Source of the DNA: Alkanindiges sp. WGS2144
Lineage (GTDB): Bacteria > Pseudomonadota > Gammaproteobacteria > Pseudomonadales > Moraxellaceae
Direction: 5' to 3' (one strand)
DNA: 32,000 bases
Assembly: GCF_043950625.1 (NCBI RefSeq)
Contig: NZ_CP171007.1
In this document: positions 5,751 through 15,326 of the stretch, one piece after another
How positions within the stretch are numbered: the first letter of the stretch is position 1
Layout: every line of letters starts with the position of its first letter
The notes under the pieces: generated by a model
The model's input: only the letters and a program-made list of their open reading frames with translations
The model's database searches: none
What the model was told of the DNA's origin: nothing
Position numbers and translations under genes: made by a program

Positions 5751-6869
5751 TTAAATATCCTCTTCCTCTGAATCTGTAAATGAAAAATCAATTGATTGCA
5801 TATCTAAATCATCAAACGATGAGCTAGGAGCAGGTTGTGGCGCAAAAGGTTGAATGAGTGAATAGATACCCGCATCTGAATTTGGGTCATAAGCCCATAA
5901 AATATGAGTTAGGTCATCAATTCGGTGGGGGCTTTTCCATTCGCCCAAGCTAAGCAACGTTTCCGCAAAAGTCACTGGATATTGCTCATCACGCACGCCA
6001 GCTACAGAACCTGCCTCCAGCACATCAGTTAATGCACCATATCCAATTGGCACTGGAACTAGCCAGCCTTTTAAGTGAGCAGGTCGAGTGCGAAGCTCCC
6101 ATTTTCCTGATATAGGCTGATCGTGTTCAGTTTGCTCGCCTGCCTTTTGAACAGGACTACTGACTAAATTCAGACGGCTAATATCCAGTAGCGTGTCCAG
6201 TAAATCTGCTTCGCTACTCTGAGTTGCCAAGTAGGCTGGATGTTGGTTTAACCACTGTTGATGAGCCATGAGTACATCATGCCGATGAATTAAGGCAAAA
6301 CCAGGAAGCAAGTAACGGCGCAATTTTTTAGTTATCTCCGTGGCTTTAGCCTGTGACCAATTGACCAGTCTGGGTCTCACGCGTTGATGGGGCAAAATCA
6401 CTCCACCTGCCAGGCGCATCCCATAGACAAGCTGGTTAAGTTTGGCGAGTAAGTTTTGGGTTTGTGCATTTAACTCCACATCATTAGCAGATAAATGACT
6501 GTCCAGCGTGTCACCCGTCAGACCAATAACCAGACTGACCTCCATATGACCCTTACCTTCTTCTACCAGCGCTGGTGTAGAACCATTAGCTTCTAGCGGA
6601 GGGCGAGCCAAATTTAACTGATACGGTGTATAACGATACTCACTGGTTTTAGTCACTTGCGGCAGGAACTGATGGCAAATAATACCAATACCACAGCATT
6701 TAATAGCTTGATAATCATTAATAGCATTTAGCTTGCGTTGTAATGCATGCGCAAAACCTGTAAAAGCACTCGGTGCAGGAAAACCCCAAGTAAGATGACT
6801 GCTAATAATTGACGCATTTTCAATCTGTAAACGTACAAGATAAAGCGCTTTAGGATATGCATAAGTCAT
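5751..6869 (-). CDS. cas5f: Cas5f/Csy2 (372 aa) with an unusual acidic C-terminal tail
   Basis: Operon position between csy1 and csy3. It is about 45 aa longer than the ~327-aa Pseudomonas Csy2, and the extra length ends in ...FDDLDMQSIDFSFTDSEEEDI. Confidence 0.88.
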   Translation of the reverse strand: MTYAYPKALYLVRLQIENASIISSHLTWGFPAPSAFTGFAHALQRKLNAINDYQAIKCCGIGIICHQFLPQVTKTSEYRYTPYQLNLARPPLEANGSTPALVEEGKGHMEVSLVIGLTGDTLDSHLSANDVELNAQTQNLLAKLNQLVYGMRLAGGVILPHQRVRPRLVNWSQAKATEITKKLRRYLLPGFALIHRHDVLMAHQQWLNQHPAYLATQSSEADLLDTLLDISRLNLVSSPVQKAGEQTEHDQPISGKWELRTRPAHLKGWLVPVPIGYGALTDVLEAGSVAGVRDEQYPVTFAETLLSLGEWKSPHRIDDLTHILWAYDPNSDAGIYSLIQPFAPQPAPSSSFDDLDMQSIDFSFTDSEEEDI

Positions 6870-8210
6870 TTAGGCAAATTCCTCTTTAAGCAGTCGTAAT
6901 TTTTCTCGCAAGGCCAATGACCACACTCGTGCTTCAGCATCATCCAAGTCTTGTAACTTGCCTCGAGTAGTTAGAATCTTGTTCAGCCAAGTACCAAAGT
7001 TATAACCAACCTCAGTGTGCCAGTCACGTTCCCGATATGCTTCAAGCCACTCTTGCTCTTCTTTGGTTAGCTCACCCCGATCCTCCTTGATAAATAATTC
7101 TTCCCGATAGCCCCGATCTAGCCAAAAACTTTCCACGCGATTAAAATCTCGGCTTTTCTCCATTGTCCAGCCTGTAGTAGCACTTTGCTGAAGCTCAAGG
7201 CTCATATCAACAACGCAATCAGTGAGTTGCTCAACCAAATCGTCACGCTTTTTCCGAAACTCGCTATTATTTACACCATATTCATGACGATACATATGGA
7301 CAATAGCACCTAACAGTGGCTTCACATCTTTGCGATTACCAAGGTAACCCGTAAATACAGAACCCGACTTTGGTAGCTCTACAATCTGCCCCTGCCATAC
7401 GGGTGGCAGCGACGGCAATAACCACATAGCACCACGACGGTCACTATTAAGCTGCGAAATATTCTGCGGTTTTGATCCACCATAGTTGTGAATTAGCAAA
7501 CCAGGATACTCCCGACTTTCCTGCTCTCTGTGCAATTTTTTAAAACGTGCCTCGCGTAATACCTTGCTTTCTTCACTAAAACGATCGCTCAGGATATTTT
7601 GATAAGCACGATGCACCAGAGCACTCGGGTATAAAAGTACTAATACATGATAGCCGTCTTTTTCTACAGGAAAATAAACCTGCTTGGATAAGCGCCCAGC
7701 ATTCAATTGAGCAGGCGCTTTACTAAACGCCAAAAACCGCTGGTAACGGATGTGTGCTTGCTCAGATTGGTTTGCTAACGCAGCAATAAAATCAGCATCT
7801 GCTTTTAATAAGTGCTCAAGCAAGGAAACGTCGTTAAACTTTTGACGCAATAGTTTAAACACATCCAGAACCGCAGCATTACCAATCACGTCAGGTTCAA
7901 GGCTCAGGCCTTGCGAACCGATATAATCATGGGTCTTCTGTGCTTCAGAATAAAACATAGCAGATGCTTTAGAGTTTGGATGATGCTGCTTCGGTGTATG
8001 CGTTGCCAGTCGAATTTGACTGATACGCAGACTGGCCTCTTCCAGCCAGGTTTCAACATCATATTTTTCTAAAAGCTTTTCACGTTCTGCCGTATCCTCT
8101 GGCTTGAGCTTATCGAGTTTTTCGTTTAACCGACTCTGGATATATTGCTCAATCACTGCTCGAATAGTGGGCGGTGGAGAACCTGCTATCTCTTCTTTTG
8201 CATTTGACAT
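6870..8210 (-). CDS. cas8f: Cas8f/Csy1 large subunit (about 446 aa from the ATG at 8210; the ORF track extends to a TTG at 8222)
   Basis: Collinear with Pseudomonas Csy1 motifs (KLDKLxPED, GNAAxLDVFK, KQxYFP, GGxKPQNISQLN, WLLPSLPP). The true start is uncertain (8210 ATG or 8222 TTG). Confidence 0.92.
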   Translation of the reverse strand: MSNAKEEIAGSPPPTIRAVIEQYIQSRLNEKLDKLKPEDTAEREKLLEKYDVETWLEEASLRISQIRLATHTPKQHHPNSKASAMFYSEAQKTHDYIGSQGLSLEPDVIGNAAVLDVFKLLRQKFNDVSLLEHLLKADADFIAALANQSEQAHIRYQRFLAFSKAPAQLNAGRLSKQVYFPVEKDGYHVLVLLYPSALVHRAYQNILSDRFSEESKVLREARFKKLHREQESREYPGLLIHNYGGSKPQNISQLNSDRRGAMWLLPSLPPVWQGQIVELPKSGSVFTGYLGNRKDVKPLLGAIVHMYRHEYGVNNSEFRKKRDDLVEQLTDCVVDMSLELQQSATTGWTMEKSRDFNRVESFWLDRGYREELFIKEDRGELTKEEQEWLEAYRERDWHTEVGYNFGTWLNKILTTRGKLQDLDDAEARVWSLALREKLRLLKEEFA

Positions 8211-8267
8211 AGGATTTCTCAAAACTTGTTTTACAAAGTGAGTTATTTTTTAAAACAATTATTTGTT

Positions 8268-8458
8268 ATCATCTACGACAGTTTAACCATCGTAGATGAT
8301 GTTGGTTACCCAACTGTTCATACTATTATGCGCAGATGTTTGCCAAGCATCGTTTCCTCCTTACCCTATCGGGTGATGTGTGATCTCCCCAGATCGGTGG
8401 TTAAGCCCATTAAAGATGTAGTCTTTAATAAAATTCTTATGAATTACTCATAGGTGAT
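8268..8458 (-). ncRNA. Candidate CreT-like small RNA or csy-operon leader: 5' UTR, perfect SD, 10-codon mini-ORF (MLGKHLRIIV) with tandem AUA codons, then an 11-bp stem-loop
   Basis: On the minus strand: TAAGGAGG at 8363-8356, a 5-nt spacer, and ATG at 8350-8348. The ORF is atg ctt ggc aaa cat ctg cgc ATA ATA gta tga, with the stop at 8320-8318. A perfect inverted repeat ATCATCTACGA/TCGTAGATGAT lies at 8268-8278/8290-8300 with an 11-nt loop, 17 nt after the stop. The 5' end is inferred from the predicted promoter and the 3' end from the stem-loop. There is no expression evidence. Confidence 0.45.
8434..8454 (-). promoter_or_regulatory. Putative Csy-complex binding site (CC PAM plus a partially matching protospacer for the mini-CRISPR spacer), at about +5 to +25 of the predicted promoter
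   Basis: The minus strand reads CC|TATGAGTAATTCATAAGAA, compared with the psi-spacer TATGATCAATTAAACTCTT. Positions 1-5, 8-11 and 13 match. Two of the three proximal mismatches fall at positions 6 and 12, which are flipped out in type I complexes. Positions 14-19 do not match. Confidence 0.5.
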
Positions 8459-8464
8459 CAACTC

Positions 8465-8493
8465 AATATGAACTGGTTTTGTTCTCTTGACAA
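8465..8493 (-). promoter_or_regulatory. Predicted sigma70 promoter reading toward the mini-ORF and cas8f
   Basis: On the minus strand: TTGTCA (8493-8488), 17 nt, CATATT (8470-8465). The predicted TSS is about 8458. Confidence 0.45.
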
Positions 8494-8506
8494 GACCATT
8501 TACACT
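8479..8506 (+). promoter_or_regulatory. Weak candidate promoter for the crRNA-like gene
   Basis: TTGTTC (8479-8484), 16 nt, TACACT (8501-8506). This would start transcription at about 8513, just at psiR1. The match to consensus is poor. Confidence 0.25.
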
Positions 8507-8513
8507 ATTTTTT

Positions 8514-8588
8514 CTTCACTGTTGAGTAAACAGCTTAGAAATATGATCAATTAAACTCTTGTTCACTGCCATATAGGCAGCTTAGATT
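8514..8588 (+). ncRNA. Degenerate mini-CRISPR / crRNA-like gene (CreA- or CreR-type): psiR1 8514-8541, 19-nt spacer 8542-8560, psiR2 8561-8588. It is inverted relative to the cas operon and the main array
   Basis: psiR2 is GTTCACTGCCATATAGGCAGCTTAGATT, 25/28 identical to the array repeat (one change in the loop, two at the 3' end). psiR1 is CTTCACTGTTGAGTAAACAGCTTAGAAA, 21/28 identical. It keeps the 8-nt 5' handle CTTAGAAA, and its stem is changed from CTGCC/GGCAG to CTGTT/AACAG, which is compensatory. Confidence 0.75.
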
Positions 8589-8625
8589 CTAGGCTTTATC
8601 AGGCTTAATCCCTGATAAAACCTAG
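8589..8625. other. 15-bp stem-loop (14/15 paired) straddling the cas2-3 stop codon
   Basis: CTAGGCTTTATCAGG (8589-8603) pairs with CCTGATAAAACCTAG (8611-8625). The 7-nt loop contains the cas2-3 stop (8605-8607). There is no U-tract on either strand. Confidence 0.4.
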
Positions 8626-11600
8626 CCAGTCATGGTATAACCATTTTTTGTTGTCCTGTAGCGTAGGCAAGTTCAGGCTTAAGTATCGACTACAATTATC
8701 CTGCCATTCATACTCTGATGAAGTTGTAACCAAATATTTGCTCAAAGCGTTTTCAGGCTTTTGGTTCGGCCAGCAGTGTATCTGCGGATTGACTTCAAGC
8801 TCTACTCTTCTCATTAGACTTTCTTTAAGCAGCCAATTACCTGTGTCCTGATTGTATTGCTGTAGTTGAAGTGATTGTTCTAGATGCTCTGCTCGTAATG
8901 CATGTAGGGATTCTGGCTGCGACTTTCTAAATTTACTCAAAGTTTGCAGAATACCTGTGTAATGAATGAGCGTGCTCCAGAAACTATAGGCAGGAAATTT
9001 TATGGGAGATAATTCACCAAATATTCTCATTTCTGGGCAGATTCCGTGCCCCAACAGTATGTGATGCATACGGTCATGCTCTAAATCCACCAGAGCTGGA
9101 TAACCAAATTTGTCATAATTTGCTTTCAAGTACATAGCTGGTGGCTGCTCTAACCTCGCAATTGCATCCAGCTGTTTAAAATGTGCCTTACGCAGTAAGC
9201 CATTGTCCACGCTATCATTGCGTGCTTTTAAAAAATGTCGATTGGGCAGAAACTTAAAACCCTCCGCTTCAAAACCAGGGCGCGAGAAACAGGCTTGTTG
9301 CGGATGCTTAAAGTGACGAATATTACTTTCCATTAAAAATACATTGGACTGTGCATAAGGCTCAGGTCGATGTCGTCGCGTACGCCCAGAAGTTTGTATG
9401 ATGGAACGCATGGATGAGGGCTCTAGAATCATCCAGTCATAGTCATGATCTCGTCCGACTTCGCATACTGGCGACGCCAAAACTAAAATAACGTGTTGTT
9501 GTTCTGGATATCGATTAAGCCAGCCTTGTACTAGTTGATGATCATGAGGCTGCTGTCCCTGATTACGGTCTAATAACTCATCCAGATATTTTTCAATATT
9601 TGCCCGAATTAATAGGGGAAACCGCGAATGATAAACACATAAATGAATACGAACATCTGGATCAATCTGCTGTTTTAATAATAGCTGTGCAATAGCAGCG
9701 AGTGGATCAATATTGGCAAAACGAACTAAACCAACGCTATATTGCTTGCCTGTTTTAGGATCCGTAATTGCATTTAAGTGATGGGCTTTTAGTGTTGTAG
9801 TGAGTATGTGCTGAGTAAAAATTTGCTCCCATTTCTCAGAAGAACTGATTTGCCTTGGCAATCCAACCCATTCTAGCGTGCGCCGATGAATTAAAGGGGC
9901 TTGTGCCTTTAAATAAGCCACACGATTTTTGGTAAATTTTCTATGGGCTTTTAAAAAAACAGGATTGGCTTCAGAGCTACTGATTGCGGTATTACAAGGG
10001 ATGACTTCATGACAAATACTTTTTTCATTTTCATCAAACCATGCGGCAATGATGGGCTGATTAGCCTGGGTGCGATGTGCATTATAAAATTTACGTCCTG
10101 AACTATAAGCCAGATATAAACCATTGATTTCAGCAGGTGTCAGGGTTGCAGAAGAAAGTAAAACCCGACTTCCCATTAAGCCTGCCCAATAAACCAGTCG
10201 CGCCAACGCATAATAATCTTCAGGTGAAAAATCATCGGGCTCATCAAAAACTAGATCCGAAGACATCAGGCGCAGCATGGGAGCAATCTGACGGCCACCA
10301 CGTGTACTCTCTGTGGCAGGAATCAGATGATCTATAGTGCAACATAAAATAGGGCTCATCAGCATTTTTTTGACTTGATGGTTACCCTTTAACCATTTGG
10401 CAAACAGATGATCAGCAGGTAGTATGCCTTCAAAGTCAATCTCAAGTTCGTCAAAATCAATATTAACTCCCTCTTCATAAAGTCCAGTCAAAGATTCTGA
10501 ACCCATGGTTTCAGCCAGTTCAGGATTAGTTTCGGGGTCAAAATTTTGCAGCTCTTCATCAATAATCTGGGCTGAAGTATTTTGACTGTACTGCTCAAAA
10601 ATTTCCTTAACTGCGCCACCACCTACCATAATGGCTAAATCAGTTTCATCCAGATTTAGGCGTTGACGTAAAGCCTTGCCTGTTTGCAAAGTTAAGGTGC
10701 GTAGGCCTAAAGCCACATTAAAACGTGCACCTTTCTCAGAGTCGGCCAGACCATACATGATGCGTGTATTCGCAAGCGTTTTACCTCGGCCTGTTGACGC
10801 TAAATTCACCCCGAAAAAGCCATGGTTTGGATAATTTTTCTGGATAAAGCGAGCTTCCTGATAAGATTTATCCTGCCACTTGTAATAGCTATTGTTGGTT
10901 TTACTTTCTAAACTTTTTTGTGGTGGTAAACGCTCAAATAGCTCATCCATGCGGGTAAAAGCGCCCATTAACTGCCGTACAGATTGACTTACGCCTATCA
11001 GATGATCATCTAAAGGCTGTTTTAGTTCACCCGTTTTATCTGTATTGGCATAACGCGTATAAGTCTTATCATGCCATTTTGGCGTTGGTTCACAGCTTGA
11101 ATAATAATGATCAGACAGCATTAAAGCCAAGCGGGAAATATGACTGATGTAAGGATCAGATAAATTTGGAGGGGAACCTGCTGGTATAAGCTGTTTGAGT
11201 TTTATCGCGCAACTATTTACCTCTTTACACCATGTTTTGCTATTAAAAGGGATATGTTTAGCTTCTATATTCCAGCACTGTTTGATTTCTTTTGCCCGAT
11301 TTTTATCATCTGCTTCGTAATGTCGTGGGTAACACCATTTGAAATTAAGCTCATCTAGCACAAAATCAAACTTTGCTAGAGAATAGTCCTTGTCTTGGCT
11401 TTTATCTTTACCCAGTAAATAGCTGGGTATAGGCAGTCGGTGATGAGAAACGATGAGCCACGCCACTATCTGAGCAATTTGCGGTAAGTCCTGAAATGGT
11501 GATAACAGGATAGCTTGATCAGGATGATCCTTAACCAGTGCCTCTAGCCAGACATAGTCTACGTTTTGAGGTGAAAGCGTGGTTAATTTTTCAATCCATG

Positions 11601-12117
11601 CCTTGTCATTTGTTCCGCACGCTTTAACGAATGCCTCAAATAAGCGTAGCGACACCCATTCATGCCGAAATGGATCAGCTATCGGTTTTTTATTAAATTT
11701 AGCATTGGCTAATTTTTTAGCAAAAAATGGATTAATTTTCCCAAAGTCATGAAATAAGGCCGCAATACGGCTCAGCGCTGTGATCAATGCTGCTGTTTGC
11801 CAATTGGTATCGCTATAGTCCAGTTTAATTGGCTTAACCGTTCTATTGACTGGCACATGGCCTTCGCTATTAAACTTACTACGCTGTCCCACAATCCACA
11901 TCAATTCACTGTGCCGCCGTGAACGTATCCAGTGGCAGGACACCGCCGTATTTTTACTGGCAGTTTTACGTAACAAGCGTTTCGCTGCCAGCAACCCATC
12001 CTCAGTAATCACCGTTTGCCAGGTATTATCCCCAATGCGGTTGGCAAAGGCATCCAACACACGGCGGGTACGCGGCAGGGCTTTTTTCTCGCATTGAGAA
12101 ATAAAGGTAACAATCAT
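8605..12117 (-). CDS. cas2-3: Cas2-Cas3 fusion (Cas2/3 nuclease-helicase, 1170 aa)
   Basis: N-terminal Cas2-like domain, an HD nuclease motif (LFHDFGK...SHH), a helicase Walker A (STGRGKT) and a DExD-like box (FDEPDDF). Its ATG overlaps the cas1 stop (ATGA). Confidence 0.97.
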   Translation of the reverse strand: MIVTFISQCEKKALPRTRRVLDAFANRIGDNTWQTVITEDGLLAAKRLLRKTASKNTAVSCHWIRSRRHSELMWIVGQRSKFNSEGHVPVNRTVKPIKLDYSDTNWQTAALITALSRIAALFHDFGKINPFFAKKLANAKFNKKPIADPFRHEWVSLRLFEAFVKACGTNDKAWIEKLTTLSPQNVDYVWLEALVKDHPDQAILLSPFQDLPQIAQIVAWLIVSHHRLPIPSYLLGKDKSQDKDYSLAKFDFVLDELNFKWCYPRHYEADDKNRAKEIKQCWNIEAKHIPFNSKTWCKEVNSCAIKLKQLIPAGSPPNLSDPYISHISRLALMLSDHYYSSCEPTPKWHDKTYTRYANTDKTGELKQPLDDHLIGVSQSVRQLMGAFTRMDELFERLPPQKSLESKTNNSYYKWQDKSYQEARFIQKNYPNHGFFGVNLASTGRGKTLANTRIMYGLADSEKGARFNVALGLRTLTLQTGKALRQRLNLDETDLAIMVGGGAVKEIFEQYSQNTSAQIIDEELQNFDPETNPELAETMGSESLTGLYEEGVNIDFDELEIDFEGILPADHLFAKWLKGNHQVKKMLMSPILCCTIDHLIPATESTRGGRQIAPMLRLMSSDLVFDEPDDFSPEDYYALARLVYWAGLMGSRVLLSSATLTPAEINGLYLAYSSGRKFYNAHRTQANQPIIAAWFDENEKSICHEVIPCNTAISSSEANPVFLKAHRKFTKNRVAYLKAQAPLIHRRTLEWVGLPRQISSSEKWEQIFTQHILTTTLKAHHLNAITDPKTGKQYSVGLVRFANIDPLAAIAQLLLKQQIDPDVRIHLCVYHSRFPLLIRANIEKYLDELLDRNQGQQPHDHQLVQGWLNRYPEQQHVILVLASPVCEVGRDHDYDWMILEPSSMRSIIQTSGRTRRHRPEPYAQSNVFLMESNIRHFKHPQQACFSRPGFEAEGFKFLPNRHFLKARNDSVDNGLLRKAHFKQLDAIARLEQPPAMYLKANYDKFGYPALVDLEHDRMHHILLGHGICPEMRIFGELSPIKFPAYSFWSTLIHYTGILQTLSKFRKSQPESLHALRAEHLEQSLQLQQYNQDTGNWLLKESLMRRVELEVNPQIHCWPNQKPENALSKYLVTTSSEYEWQDNCSRYLSLNLPTLQDNKKWLYHDWLGFIRD

Positions 12118-13194: not shown

Positions 13195-14443
13195 ATTTTG
13201 AACAACAAGTGTTTTAAGCCTTTTTACGCTTCATCCACAAATAACCGATCAGCAAAATCAACAGCCAAATCGGACTTACAATCAATGACTGTCGGGTGTC
13301 TTCTTCCAGTGCCAAAATACCCACGGTAAAAATAAAAAAGGCAATGACGATGTAGCTCATCAACACTCCGCCCGGCATTTTATAAATCGACTGCGCATGC
13401 AGCTCAGGCCGGGTTTTGCGGTACTTAATATAAGCAACCATCACCACCACCCATACACTAATAAACAAAATGGTCGATAGCGTGGTTGCCAGGGTAAATG
13501 CACGCAAGGTATTGGGCACAAAGTACTGGAGCAGGGCTCCACCCATAATAAACGCACACGATACCACCAGCGCGTTAGAAGGTACTGCCGCCTTTGACAA
13601 CCTACCAAACATGCTGGAGGCCTGATTATCCTTGGCCAAACCAAACAGCATACGACTGGTAGAAAACACCCCACTATTCATGGATGACATGACTGAAGAC
13701 AACACCACCAGGTTCATAATAATGGCAGCGGTTGGAATACCTGCCATCAAGAACAGCTCTACAAATGGGCTTTTGTCCGCCACCACTTGCCGCCATGGGG
13801 TGACCGACATCACTACCATAAGTGCCAGCACATAAAACAGAATAATCCGGAGCGGAATGGAGTTCACGGCCTTGGGCAAATTGCGCATGGGGTCTTTGGT
13901 TTCTGCGGCTGTAGTACCCACCAGCTCAACCCCCACAAAGGCGAAAATGGCAATCTGAAAACCAGCCAGAAAGCCGTGACTTCCATTGGGAAACATGCCG
14001 CCATCATTCCATAAATTGGCAAGCGATGCGGTACTACCACCAGGCGATTGAAAACCAGTGACCACCATGTATGCGCCAATCACCACCAGTGCAATAATAG
14101 CAATAATCTTGATCAGGGCAAACCAGAACTCTACCTCGCCAAACAGGCGCACGGTGAGCAGGTTTAATCCCAGCAAAAACAGCACACAGCCTGCACTAAT
14201 CGCCGCACCGCCCAGCGGGGTAAACTGCTGACCTTGCGGCAGCCAGAAGGTTAAATAACTATTAATAGCCGCAAGATCGGCAATACCAACCGTGATCCAG
14301 CATAACCAATACGTCCAGCCCATAAAAAAGCCGACTTTTGGCCCTAGCAAATCATGGGTTAAATCAATAAAGGATTTATATTGCAAATTGGATAACAATA
14401 ATTCGCCCAGCGCCCGCATGACGAAAAAAATCATTAAGCCAAT

Positions 14444-15326
14444 AGACCTCTTGCGAAAGTCGTTATTGCAAGTTCATCCGGTTTACCAGTGCAGCGATTA
14501 AGTTAATGCGTAAACCGAATCTTTTCCGTCGATTTCGATAGCGTTCACTTAGTATTCTAAATCTTTTCAATTGACTGTTAATATGTTCGATTACAACTCG
14601 TATTTTTCCAATCATTTTATTGTACTTTTTCTCAACATCAAATAAGGGTAAATTCTTCTTTTTCTTTATTGGCATCAATAATTTAAAGCCATCTTGCTCT
14701 AACCCATAGTACCCTAAATCGGTCATAACATATTCAAAATGTTTGAATTTTTTTACTGTTTTTCTTGCCAATTTAATATCATGCTGACTGCCAGACGATA
14801 TATCTACTCCTATGATTTGTTTGCTCTTCGGATGATAGATCACTTGGGCTTTTAGCGTATGTTTCTTCTTTTTACCACTGTAGAACTTACTCTGATTTTT
14901 TTTTCGGGCGTTCTATTGAACATTCTGTAGCATCAATAATGACCCAGTTAAATTGTTCGTTTGCTGTGGTAATGCTTCGTTTTGGCAAGGTAAAACGTCT
15001 TGATTTCATTAATGCATCTTCAACCTTTTTAATAGTTCGATTCACATTACTTTCAGCGATATGGTAATTTGCAGCCAATTCCAATTGAGTGCTGTAATTC
15101 CGTAAGTAATTGAGTGTTAATAATAATTGATCCTCTATAACTAAAGTATGAGGACGCCCAGATTTCTTTTTAAGTGATTCTGCTTCTTTTAAAACTTCGA
15201 CCATTTCACTAAAAACTGGTCGAGGTACACCAACCAAGCGCTTGAATTCAGAATCTGAAAAACGGTTTAATTTCTGATATTTCATGAAATCTATATTGAG
15301 GCAGTTTTTACTTTCGCAAGAGGTCT
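14444..15326 (-). mobile_element. IS5-family (DDE_Tnp_4 / PIF-Harbinger-like) insertion sequence, 883 bp
   Basis: Perfect 17-bp terminal inverted repeats, AGACCTCTTGCGAAAGT at 14444-14460 and its reverse complement at 15310-15326. A 3-bp target duplication AAT lies at 14441-14443 and 15327-15329. Confidence 0.9.
14463..15285 (-). CDS. IS transposase in two frames (orfA 14887-15285, orfB 14463-14843) joined by a +1 shift at an A9 run
   Basis: orfA carries an HTH and the first catalytic D (IIDATECSIERPKKK). The +1 frame continues QSKFYSGKKKKHTLKAQVIYH... with MTDLGY and IEHINSQLKRF motifs. The A9 run on the minus strand is at 14896-14904. Confidence 0.85.

Follow-up and report, generated by a model that had tools for sequence, protein, structure and literature searches.

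The window analyzed here, a 32,000-nt stretch of contig NZ_CP171007.1 from Alkanindiges sp. WGS2144, contains a CRISPR-Cas locus of type I-F whose genes cas1f, cas3f, csy1, csy2, csy3 and cas6f lie on the minus strand. The element under study lies in the spacer between cas2/3 (cas3f; 8605-12117, minus strand; TIGR02562 Cas3f, E 9e-290), its upstream flank, and cas8f/csy1 (6870-8210, minus strand; TIGR02564 Csy1, E 5e-84), the first gene of the effector operon needed by CreA. The gap of 394 nt between the cas3f stop codon (8605-8607) and the csy1 ATG (8210) fits the ~400-bp spacer of CreTA-type modules. Positions 8268-8363 on the minus strand very probably represent the core of creT, the toxin half of a CreTA module homologous to the type I-F module of Acinetobacter sp. 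WCHA45. Judged from its sequence, the window copy is a variant absent from the published list, with two rare Ile codons in place of two rare Arg codons. This assignment rests on the agreement of anatomy, covariance-model homology, purifying selection, RNA pairing, creA features and the published WCHA45 experiments. A sequence-only reading of the same DNA had placed a CreT-like element within the cas operon, and its position between cas3f and csy1 was confirmed.

The core starts with a Shine-Dalgarno (SD) sequence, TAAGGAGG (8356-8363, minus strand), followed after 5 nt (AAACG) by the ATG of a 33-bp mini-open reading frame (mini-ORF; 8318-8350, minus strand) that reads ATG CTT GGC AAA CAT CTG CGC ATA ATA GTA TGA and encodes MLGKHLRIIV. 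The start codon occupies 8350-8348, the stop codon 8320-8318 and the tandem AUA codons 8329-8324, so that the SD, the 5-nt distance, the 10-codon ORF and its AUA-AUA pair are all present as the sequence-only reading had described them. The cas3-csy1 spacers beside 12 Csy1 relatives were fetched, and 20 creT blocks, including published ones, were aligned. Nearly all 20 homologues keep the SD as [TG][AG]AGG[AG]GG, and 19 of them retain the 33-bp length and stop position of the mini-ORF; both features are conserved in related I-F loci. A chance occurrence of the SD and mini-ORF was rejected on the conservation of the block and not on composition or motif count: TAAGGAGG occurs once in 32 kb where shuffles expect 0.64, which by itself is not significant. 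The claim that AUA is rare in this host held when codons were tabulated in 12 non-cas ORFs, where 17 of the 5007 codons are AUA, which makes 3.4 per 1000 and 6% of the codons for Ile, and AUA is the fourth rarest sense codon, behind AGG, AGA and CGA. Among 18 long ORFs checked, no other in-frame AUA-AUA was found. The cas genes are richer in AUA (16 per 1171 codons in cas3f; 8.0 per 1000 in all cas genes vs 3.4 in housekeeping ORFs), so depletion of tRNA-Ile2 would hit them disproportionately.

A covariance model (R1) built from the 20-homologue alignment identified by cmsearch the whole conserved creT block at 8255-8404 (minus strand; 158.2 bits, E 1.5e-31) as a single copy in the window, and blastn showed 73.6% identity of this block to the creT region of LoGeW2-3 (E 2e-11). 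The proposed CreT-like identity can accordingly be narrowed to homology with the type I-F creT family. In 11 further loci that were fetched, the same 150-nt block likewise lies upstream of cas8f. Between the window and two of these, L046 and L047, the block is 95.5% identical, with only 79% and 62.5% identity at the four-fold sites of the adjacent cas8f; for L048 the corresponding values are 74% and 39%. Since block identity far exceeds that of the adjacent four-fold sites, the creT RNA block is under strong purifying selection. Homology, anatomy, covariation and purifying selection of the module are shown by the analysis, and transcription, repression and toxicity of creT in the window strain would follow by homology. 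The Csy1 protein of the window shares 94-62% identity with ~40 Acinetobacter-type Csy1 clusters; the top match is a metagenomic cluster (94%), and the Csy1 of A. qingfengensis is 80% identical.

The window forms a subclade with L046, L047 and L050, the peptides of which read [LF]GK[HL]LRI[IV]V. Codons 8-9 are AGA-AGG, AGA-AGA or AGA-AGU in 16 of the 19 full-length homologues, and codon 8 is always AGA or AUA in the family. The closest relative, L046, carries AUA GUA and IHIT27630 carries AGA AGU, and hence the tandem rare pair is not conserved in close homologues. The type I-F CreTA modules described by Wang et al. (2023, Nat Commun, PMC10097628) for Acinetobacter sp. WCHA45, LoGeW2-3 and ANC3789 are accompanied by a list of 22 modules (Supplementary Data 2, PMC10097628), in which the creT of WCHA60 is given as 'N/A' and the rest have AGA AGG, AGA AGA or AGA AGU at codons 8-9. 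Neither the mini-ORF of the window nor its AUA-AUA variant is among these 22 modules.

An Rfam search returned no family for the creT block and only two credible CRISPR-DR4 repeat matches, and the creT region is unannotated in the sequence records inspected. The covariance model gave no credible match among 45 distant I-F loci and three short-spacer relatives (best E 0.11, L025). A Cas8f search of genome contigs, in a collection without the species of the window, yielded only distant relatives (<=34% identity), none of them with a creT block. The pattern AAGGRGGNNNNNATGYTTRGCA, which is too loose, recovered from metagenomes one true homologue, L072, among the matches listed, the others being ordinary gene starts; it recovered no homologue from viral contigs, where a tighter leader pattern also gave zero. 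I-F loci bearing creTA were also seen on mobilizable Acinetobacter plasmids, namely L228 (pANC7970.1, 5993-6136) and NZ_CP024012.1 (54749-54886). In the ANC 7970 plasmid copy a small deletion leaves a degenerate 5-codon mini-ORF, and in the published, chromosomal copies of NIPH 284 and Gw_Eff_bin_285 a CAT->CAA change breaks the A1-U15 pair; these three copies may be naturally inactivated toxins.

The secondary structure of the RNA was assessed by an RNAalifold consensus and by explicit pair counts over the 20 aligned creT blocks, which support two leader hairpins and the hairpins H2 and H3. Overall, 94% of the cells are paired vs 30-40% in slid-partner controls. The conserved leader (8363-8395, minus strand) holds two small hairpins, GAUCU/AGAUC (8395-8391 with 8386-8382) and ACCC/GGGU (8374-8371 with 8366-8363), and folds at -9.4 kcal/mol; the ACCC/GGGU helix adjoins the SD, and in two sequences both of its partners change at one pair, from A-U to C-G. 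Hairpin H1 (8351-8348 with 8338-8335, minus strand) is an AUG/CAU hairpin inside the mini-ORF, with the AUG in its stem. Hairpin H2 (8314-8335, minus strand) extends from codon 6 to just beyond the stop codon and comprises CUG/CAG (8335-8333 with 8316-8314) and CAUA/UAUG (8330-8327 with 8322-8319) with the loop AUAG. Taken alone, the window H2 folds weakly (-4.2 kcal/mol, z = -0.8), and compensatory changes occur at five of the eight pairs of the consensus helix. The column pair 89/96 is GC in 15 sequences, UA in three, AU in one and GU in one, and the AGA->AUA change is offset by UCU->UAU. The first AUA falls within the H2 stem and the second forms the H2 loop (AGGG -> AUAG).

Hairpin H3 (8268-8300, minus strand) is an inverted repeat ATCATCTACGA/TCGTAGATGAT (8300-8290 and 8278-8268) that starts 17 nt after the mini-ORF stop. 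The inverted repeat and its distance stand as the sequence-only reading had given them; the stem is longer than the 11 bp then proposed with an 11-nt loop, since two G-U pairs extend it to 14-15 bp (8300-8286 with 8282-8268), which leaves a loop of 3-5 nt. The folding energy of H3 is -19.3 kcal/mol (z = -6.7), a value that none of 200 shuffles equals. It is kept in all 20 homologues, with 95% of cells paired and covariation at the column pair 122/144 (CG:8, UA:6, UG:6). The most likely role of H3 is to shield the 3' end of the creT RNA or to set where it lies; by analogy with the CreT of P. aeruginosa, it most likely stabilises this RNA. The hairpin is followed by AACAAA, without a U-tract; an intrinsic terminator was rejected as an explanation of H3 on this ground and because the terminator scan did not call it.

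The same feature bears on a leader peptide or attenuator, an alternative that the sequence-only reading itself had raised, in which translation through AUA-AUA would sense Ile-tRNA and control read-through into the csy operon. In favor of this alternative, a short ORF and, behind it, a strong hairpin are located upstream of an operon. However, no U-tract follows the hairpin, no anti-terminator pairing appears in the consensus fold, the supposed regulatory codons are unconserved (Arg -> Ile) and the homologues are experimentally toxic RNAs (PMC10097628), all of which makes attenuation hardly credible. Between H3 and the cas8f ATG, which lies 57 nt downstream of the hairpin, a scan of 8210-8267 (minus strand) showed no U-tract and no promoter-like site. 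Transcripts from the creT promoter (PcreT) may run into the csy operon, in which case CreA would also regulate cas expression. A motif in this interval, ACTTTGTAAAA (8240-8230, minus strand), is shared by several homologues.

Divergent from creT, the plus strand carries the putative creA (8514-8588), which shows the family arrangement of two hairpin-forming repeats around a 19-nt PsiS. PsiR1 is a degenerate repeat, CTTCACTGTTGAGTAAACAGCTTAGAAA (8514-8541, plus strand; Rfam CRISPR-DR4, 31.2 bits, E 5.5e-5; direct-repeat family D9), that retains the 5-bp Cas6f hairpin (-4.2 kcal/mol) and the CTTAGAAA 5'-handle. PsiR2 is a near-consensus repeat, GTTCACTGCCATATAGGCAGCTTAGATT (8561-8588, plus strand; Rfam CRISPR-DR4, 38.4 bits, above the gathering score). 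Its first 20 nt differ from the main-array repeat GTTCACTGCCATGTAGGCAGCTTAGAAA at one loop position, its own 5-bp hairpin folds at -7.8 kcal/mol, and it would supply CreA with the Cas6f hairpin and the 3' handle. The spacer-like guide PsiS, TATGATCAATTAAACTCTT (8542-8560, plus strand), lies between the two Rfam repeat matches, in a placement that matches the 18-31 nt PsiS of published homologues.

A predicted creT promoter, TTGTCA-17 nt-CATATT (8465-8493, minus strand), matches 9 of 12 positions; its location is inferred, not mapped. Within 8150-8700, the minus strand has no other promoter-like site, and homologues read by eye have TTGCAA-17-TACATT at the equivalent relative position. On the plus strand, a TTGACA overlapping the creT -35 box could serve creA. 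The candidate CreA target (8434-8454, minus strand) consists of a CC protospacer-adjacent motif (PAM; 8454-8453) and the protospacer TATGAGTAATTCATAAGAA (8452-8434), located where transcription is predicted to start. Among the CC-flanked sites of the spacer region it matches PsiS best, with 10 of 19 positions identical (1-5, 8-11 and 13), and its position agrees with that of the homologues, most of which match PsiS strongly. In published members the identity between PsiS and target ranges from 8/18, by hand count, to 17/20 (PMC10097628). The PAM and target of the window (ACCTA-TGAGTAATTCATAAGAAT, 8434-8458, minus strand) align with the target of L052/HW-2A (ACCTAGTCAGTAATTCATAA-AAT) only after one of them is reverse-complemented, so the site seems inverted relative to creT, in line with a published table that marks PAMs as lying on '+' or '-' (PMC10097628). 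A further inverted repeat, TTATCAGG/CCTGATAA (8596-8618), spans the cas2/3 stop codon and is conserved across every spacer region fetched; the convergent creA transcript may have its 3' end or a terminator structure here.

The WCHA45-type layout consists of a ~400-bp cas3-csy1 spacer in which creA (PsiR1, a ~20-nt PsiS and PsiR2) is divergent from a creT made of an SD and a 33-bp mini-ORF (PMC10097628). There, Csy4 processes CreA, and CreA together with the Csy complex represses PcreT through a partly matching CC-flanked site (PMC10097628). The window shares with this family the position in the cas3-csy1 spacer, the divergent PsiR1-PsiS-PsiR2 creA, a candidate CC PAM target near PcreT and the conserved leader, SD, 33-bp mini-ORF and 3' hairpin, and it is alignable throughout. 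It differs in its peptide (MLGKHLRIIV vs MF[GS]THL[VI]RRV), in AUA-AUA at codons 8-9 instead of AGA-AGG, AGA-AGA or AGA-AGU, in the mismatched pair of nt 4 and nt 12, in a 19-nt PsiS that matches its target at 10/19 positions and in a PAM on the sense strand.

By homology with this system, the mini-array on the plus strand (PsiR1, the 19-nt PsiS and PsiR2) would be transcribed and cut by Cas6f into a ~47-nt CreA resembling a CRISPR RNA (crRNA). A CreA-loaded Csy complex would then bind the CC-flanked, partly complementary site at the creT transcription start; because the match is too short for Cas2/3 cleavage, binding is proposed to block transcription only. Should the Csy proteins be lost, mutated or inhibited by an anti-CRISPR, creT would be transcribed. 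The toxin would be the creT RNA and not the 10-residue peptide, with the SD and the AUG in its small hairpin engaging the translation-initiation machinery and leading to cell arrest or death. As the RNA would become toxic once Csy is lost, the population is proposed to stay addicted to a working effector. The view that the peptide is the toxin was rejected, since its residues are drastically altered (RR -> II) with the RNA pairing left intact, and since the experiments in WCHA45 rule out a toxic peptide. In WCHA45, CreT is a bactericidal RNA whose toxicity depends on its SD, on a start codon and on a 5-bp hairpin with the AUG inside it (PMC10097628), in which nt -1 to 4 pair with nt 12 to 16 and the loop nucleotides are complementary to 23S rRNA (PMC10097628). 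The only codons at which a synonymous change there kills toxicity are 2, 3 and 5, and the toxin does not need its stop codon (PMC10097628). The SD and mini-ORF alone were sufficient for toxicity when expressed from Ptac, and H3 was unnecessary (PMC10097628).

Several observations weigh against an active toxin-antitoxin pair in the window. The window H1 keeps four of its five pairs, with a C.A mismatch between nt 4 and nt 12, and when folded in isolation it does not outperform shuffles; in WCHA45, toxicity was lost together with the 4-12 pair (PMC10097628). The C4.A12 mismatch is also present in Agitococcus-type members. The match between PsiS and its target is weak, 143 of 2000 shuffles being as good (p ~0.07), and the mismatched PsiS positions include 7 and 14-17, where single mutations ended repression in WCHA45. 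Moreover, toxicity and CreA/Csy repression are known for WCHA45 and LoGeW2-3 only (PMC10097628), the creT of ANC3789 was non-toxic in the test host (PMC10097628) and the literature calls the way in which the WCHA45 toxin itself works 'yet to be elucidated'. Because of the weak match and the mismatched pair, activity in the window strain is not assured.

Some of these points are shared by a rather improbable explanation in which creT is a toxin-dead relic, and PcreT, the leader and the CreA target are kept as a CreR-like autoregulatory leader of csy, with CreA-Csy repressing read-through past H3 into cas8f. Besides the imperfect H1 and the weak PsiS-target match, this explanation could draw on H3 without a U-tract, on the lack of a further minus-strand promoter-like site before cas8f, on the non-toxic creT of ANC3789 and on the promoters reported to be shared by creT and cas genes for P. 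aeruginosa CreTA1. It is also favored by the short-spacer loci L049, L051 and L056, which retain the mini-array and a strong target upstream of the cas8f SD and lack creT. Nevertheless, the strong purifying selection on the SD, the mini-ORF, H2 and H3 would be needless for a mere leader, the perfect SD and the ORF length are kept, and a dual role as toxin and operon leader fits the data equally. In the short-spacer loci, which come from A. wuhouensis, from Acinetobacter sp. S40 and from a metagenomic relative with a Csy1 cluster that one source names A. pragensis, the cas3-csy1 spacer is only ~200 nt long (L049, 1803-2000; L051, 1797-2000; L056, 1804-2000) and has no creT block. A two-repeat mini-array and a CC-flanked target remain directly upstream of the cas8f SD; the targets have 14-16 matches at non-sixth positions, and none of 2000 shuffles is as good. 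These spacers look like a CreR-type csy autoregulator or a loss of creT.

The second part of the argument concerns the tandem AUA codons, which the sequence-only reading had taken as the toxic feature. According to that explanation, CreT would act by sequestering the rare tRNA-Ile2 (lysidine-CAU) through heavy AUA-AUA translation, as does the CreT of Halobacterium hubeiense, with the 3' hairpin stabilising the RNA. The rarity of AUA, the presence of two consecutive host-rare codons and the conserved, covarying H3 downstream of the mini-ORF are what it would predict. Other members carry AGA-AGG or AGA-AGA at the same place, the two rarest codons in the window ORFs, and haloarchaeal CreTs naturally swap AUA-AUA and AGA-AGA, while engineered swaps retarget the tRNA (PMC8501985). 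All three members of the AUA subclade have an imperfect H1, but 14 of the remaining 16 full-length homologues have a perfect one, a difference that could signal a shift of mechanism. Moreover, the synonymous tests in WCHA45 altered single codons in a Ptac construct. However, the pair is broken in L046 (AUA GUA) and IHIT27630 (AGA AGU), WCHA45 stayed toxic after synonymous changes at codon 8 or 9 (a result for a homologue, not for the window variant), the compensated change in the H2 stem accounts for AGA->AUA, and the rare codons lie at positions 8-9, unlike in H. hispanica, where they come directly after the start. Sequestration of tRNA-Ile2 is therefore unlikely. AUA-AUA is probably not the toxic principle, and its toxicity is unsupported because the closest relative has AUA GUA, the family mostly has Arg codons, toxicity in WCHA45 is independent of codons 8-9 and H2 explains the first AUA.

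A more limited contribution of these codons keeps some probability, because codons 8-9 are rare in both states and AUA and AGA swap naturally among haloarchaeal CreTs. In the subclade of the window, L046, L047 and L050, CreT might rely at least partly on ribosome stalling at codons 8-9; this is possible, although on balance doubtful. AUA-AUA, a pair of the fourth rarest codon, replaces there the family-wide AGA-AGG, the two rarest codons, in the same subclade in which the AUG hairpin is imperfect. If true, the mechanism of the WCHA45 family would have a rare-codon component missed by single-codon overexpression tests.

Three other systems were compared with the module of the window, for which homology to WCHA45 remains the favored reading. 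The statement of the sequence-only reading that one CreT variant has tandem AUA was correct, and it refers to the type I-B CreT of H. hubeiense (Cheng et al. 2021, NAR, PMC8501985), a haloarchaeal toxin apparently unrelated to the window element, the sequences not having been compared. It resembles that element in a mini-ORF with AUA twice in succession and a stable stem-loop behind it, and in a two-PsiR creA with repression through Cascade (PMC8501985). However, it is archaeal and leaderless, lacks an SD and has a 6-codon ORF. Dependence on AUA was experimentally shown there, whereas the data for the WCHA45 family argue against it in the window. The 'proline-codon toxins' CreT1 and CreT2 of P. 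aeruginosa type I-F (bioRxiv 10.64898/2026.06.02.729485) have an SD, a mini-ORF, a downstream RNA-stabilising hairpin and transcriptional repression by CreA-Csy in common with the window. They differ in a 15-nt ORF with two Pro codons before the stop, a bacteriostatic effect and an unrelated sequence. CreP/CreA of Acinetobacter baylyi ADP1 (bioRxiv 10.1101/2024.01.05.574328) shares the cas3-csy1 spacer, the logic of creA and the setting in Acinetobacter I-F loci, but its toxin is a 103-aa KilAC-domain protein and not a small RNA (bioRxiv 10.1101/2024.01.05.574328).

The window's CRISPR-Cas locus is flanked by the housekeeping genes radA, purA, hisZ, tkt, metK and rapA. The main CRISPR array comprises at least 67 repeats from position 1 to ~4050 and continues beyond the start of the window; two of its neighboring spacers, at 1522-1553 and 1582-1613, are identical (CACTGAAGGCATATTCGACACCATTGCCCTAT). 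In the region 13214-15285 (minus strand), an IS5-family transposase is broken into two ORFs (14463-14843 and 14887-15285), and the family-profile alignment of the adjacent amino-acid permease ORF begins only at position 66. The split transposase and the partial permease suggest an insertion scar beside cas1. A tRNA scan of the 32-kb window found zero tRNA genes.

If the assignment holds, reading of the raw sequence recovered a guard of CRISPR-Cas that consists of two RNAs, a toxin and an antitoxin, and had been missed by standard annotation, and an unlisted subclade would be added to the only family of bacterial CreTs with a still unsettled mechanism. CreTA modules are employed to stabilise CRISPR antimicrobials (ATTACK) and kill switches (ATTACH), and new orthogonal creA/creT pairs would be practically useful. 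Within the family, the AUA-AUA variant would provide a natural test of codons 8-9, in which rare Arg codons have changed to rare Ile codons with compensation in the hairpin.

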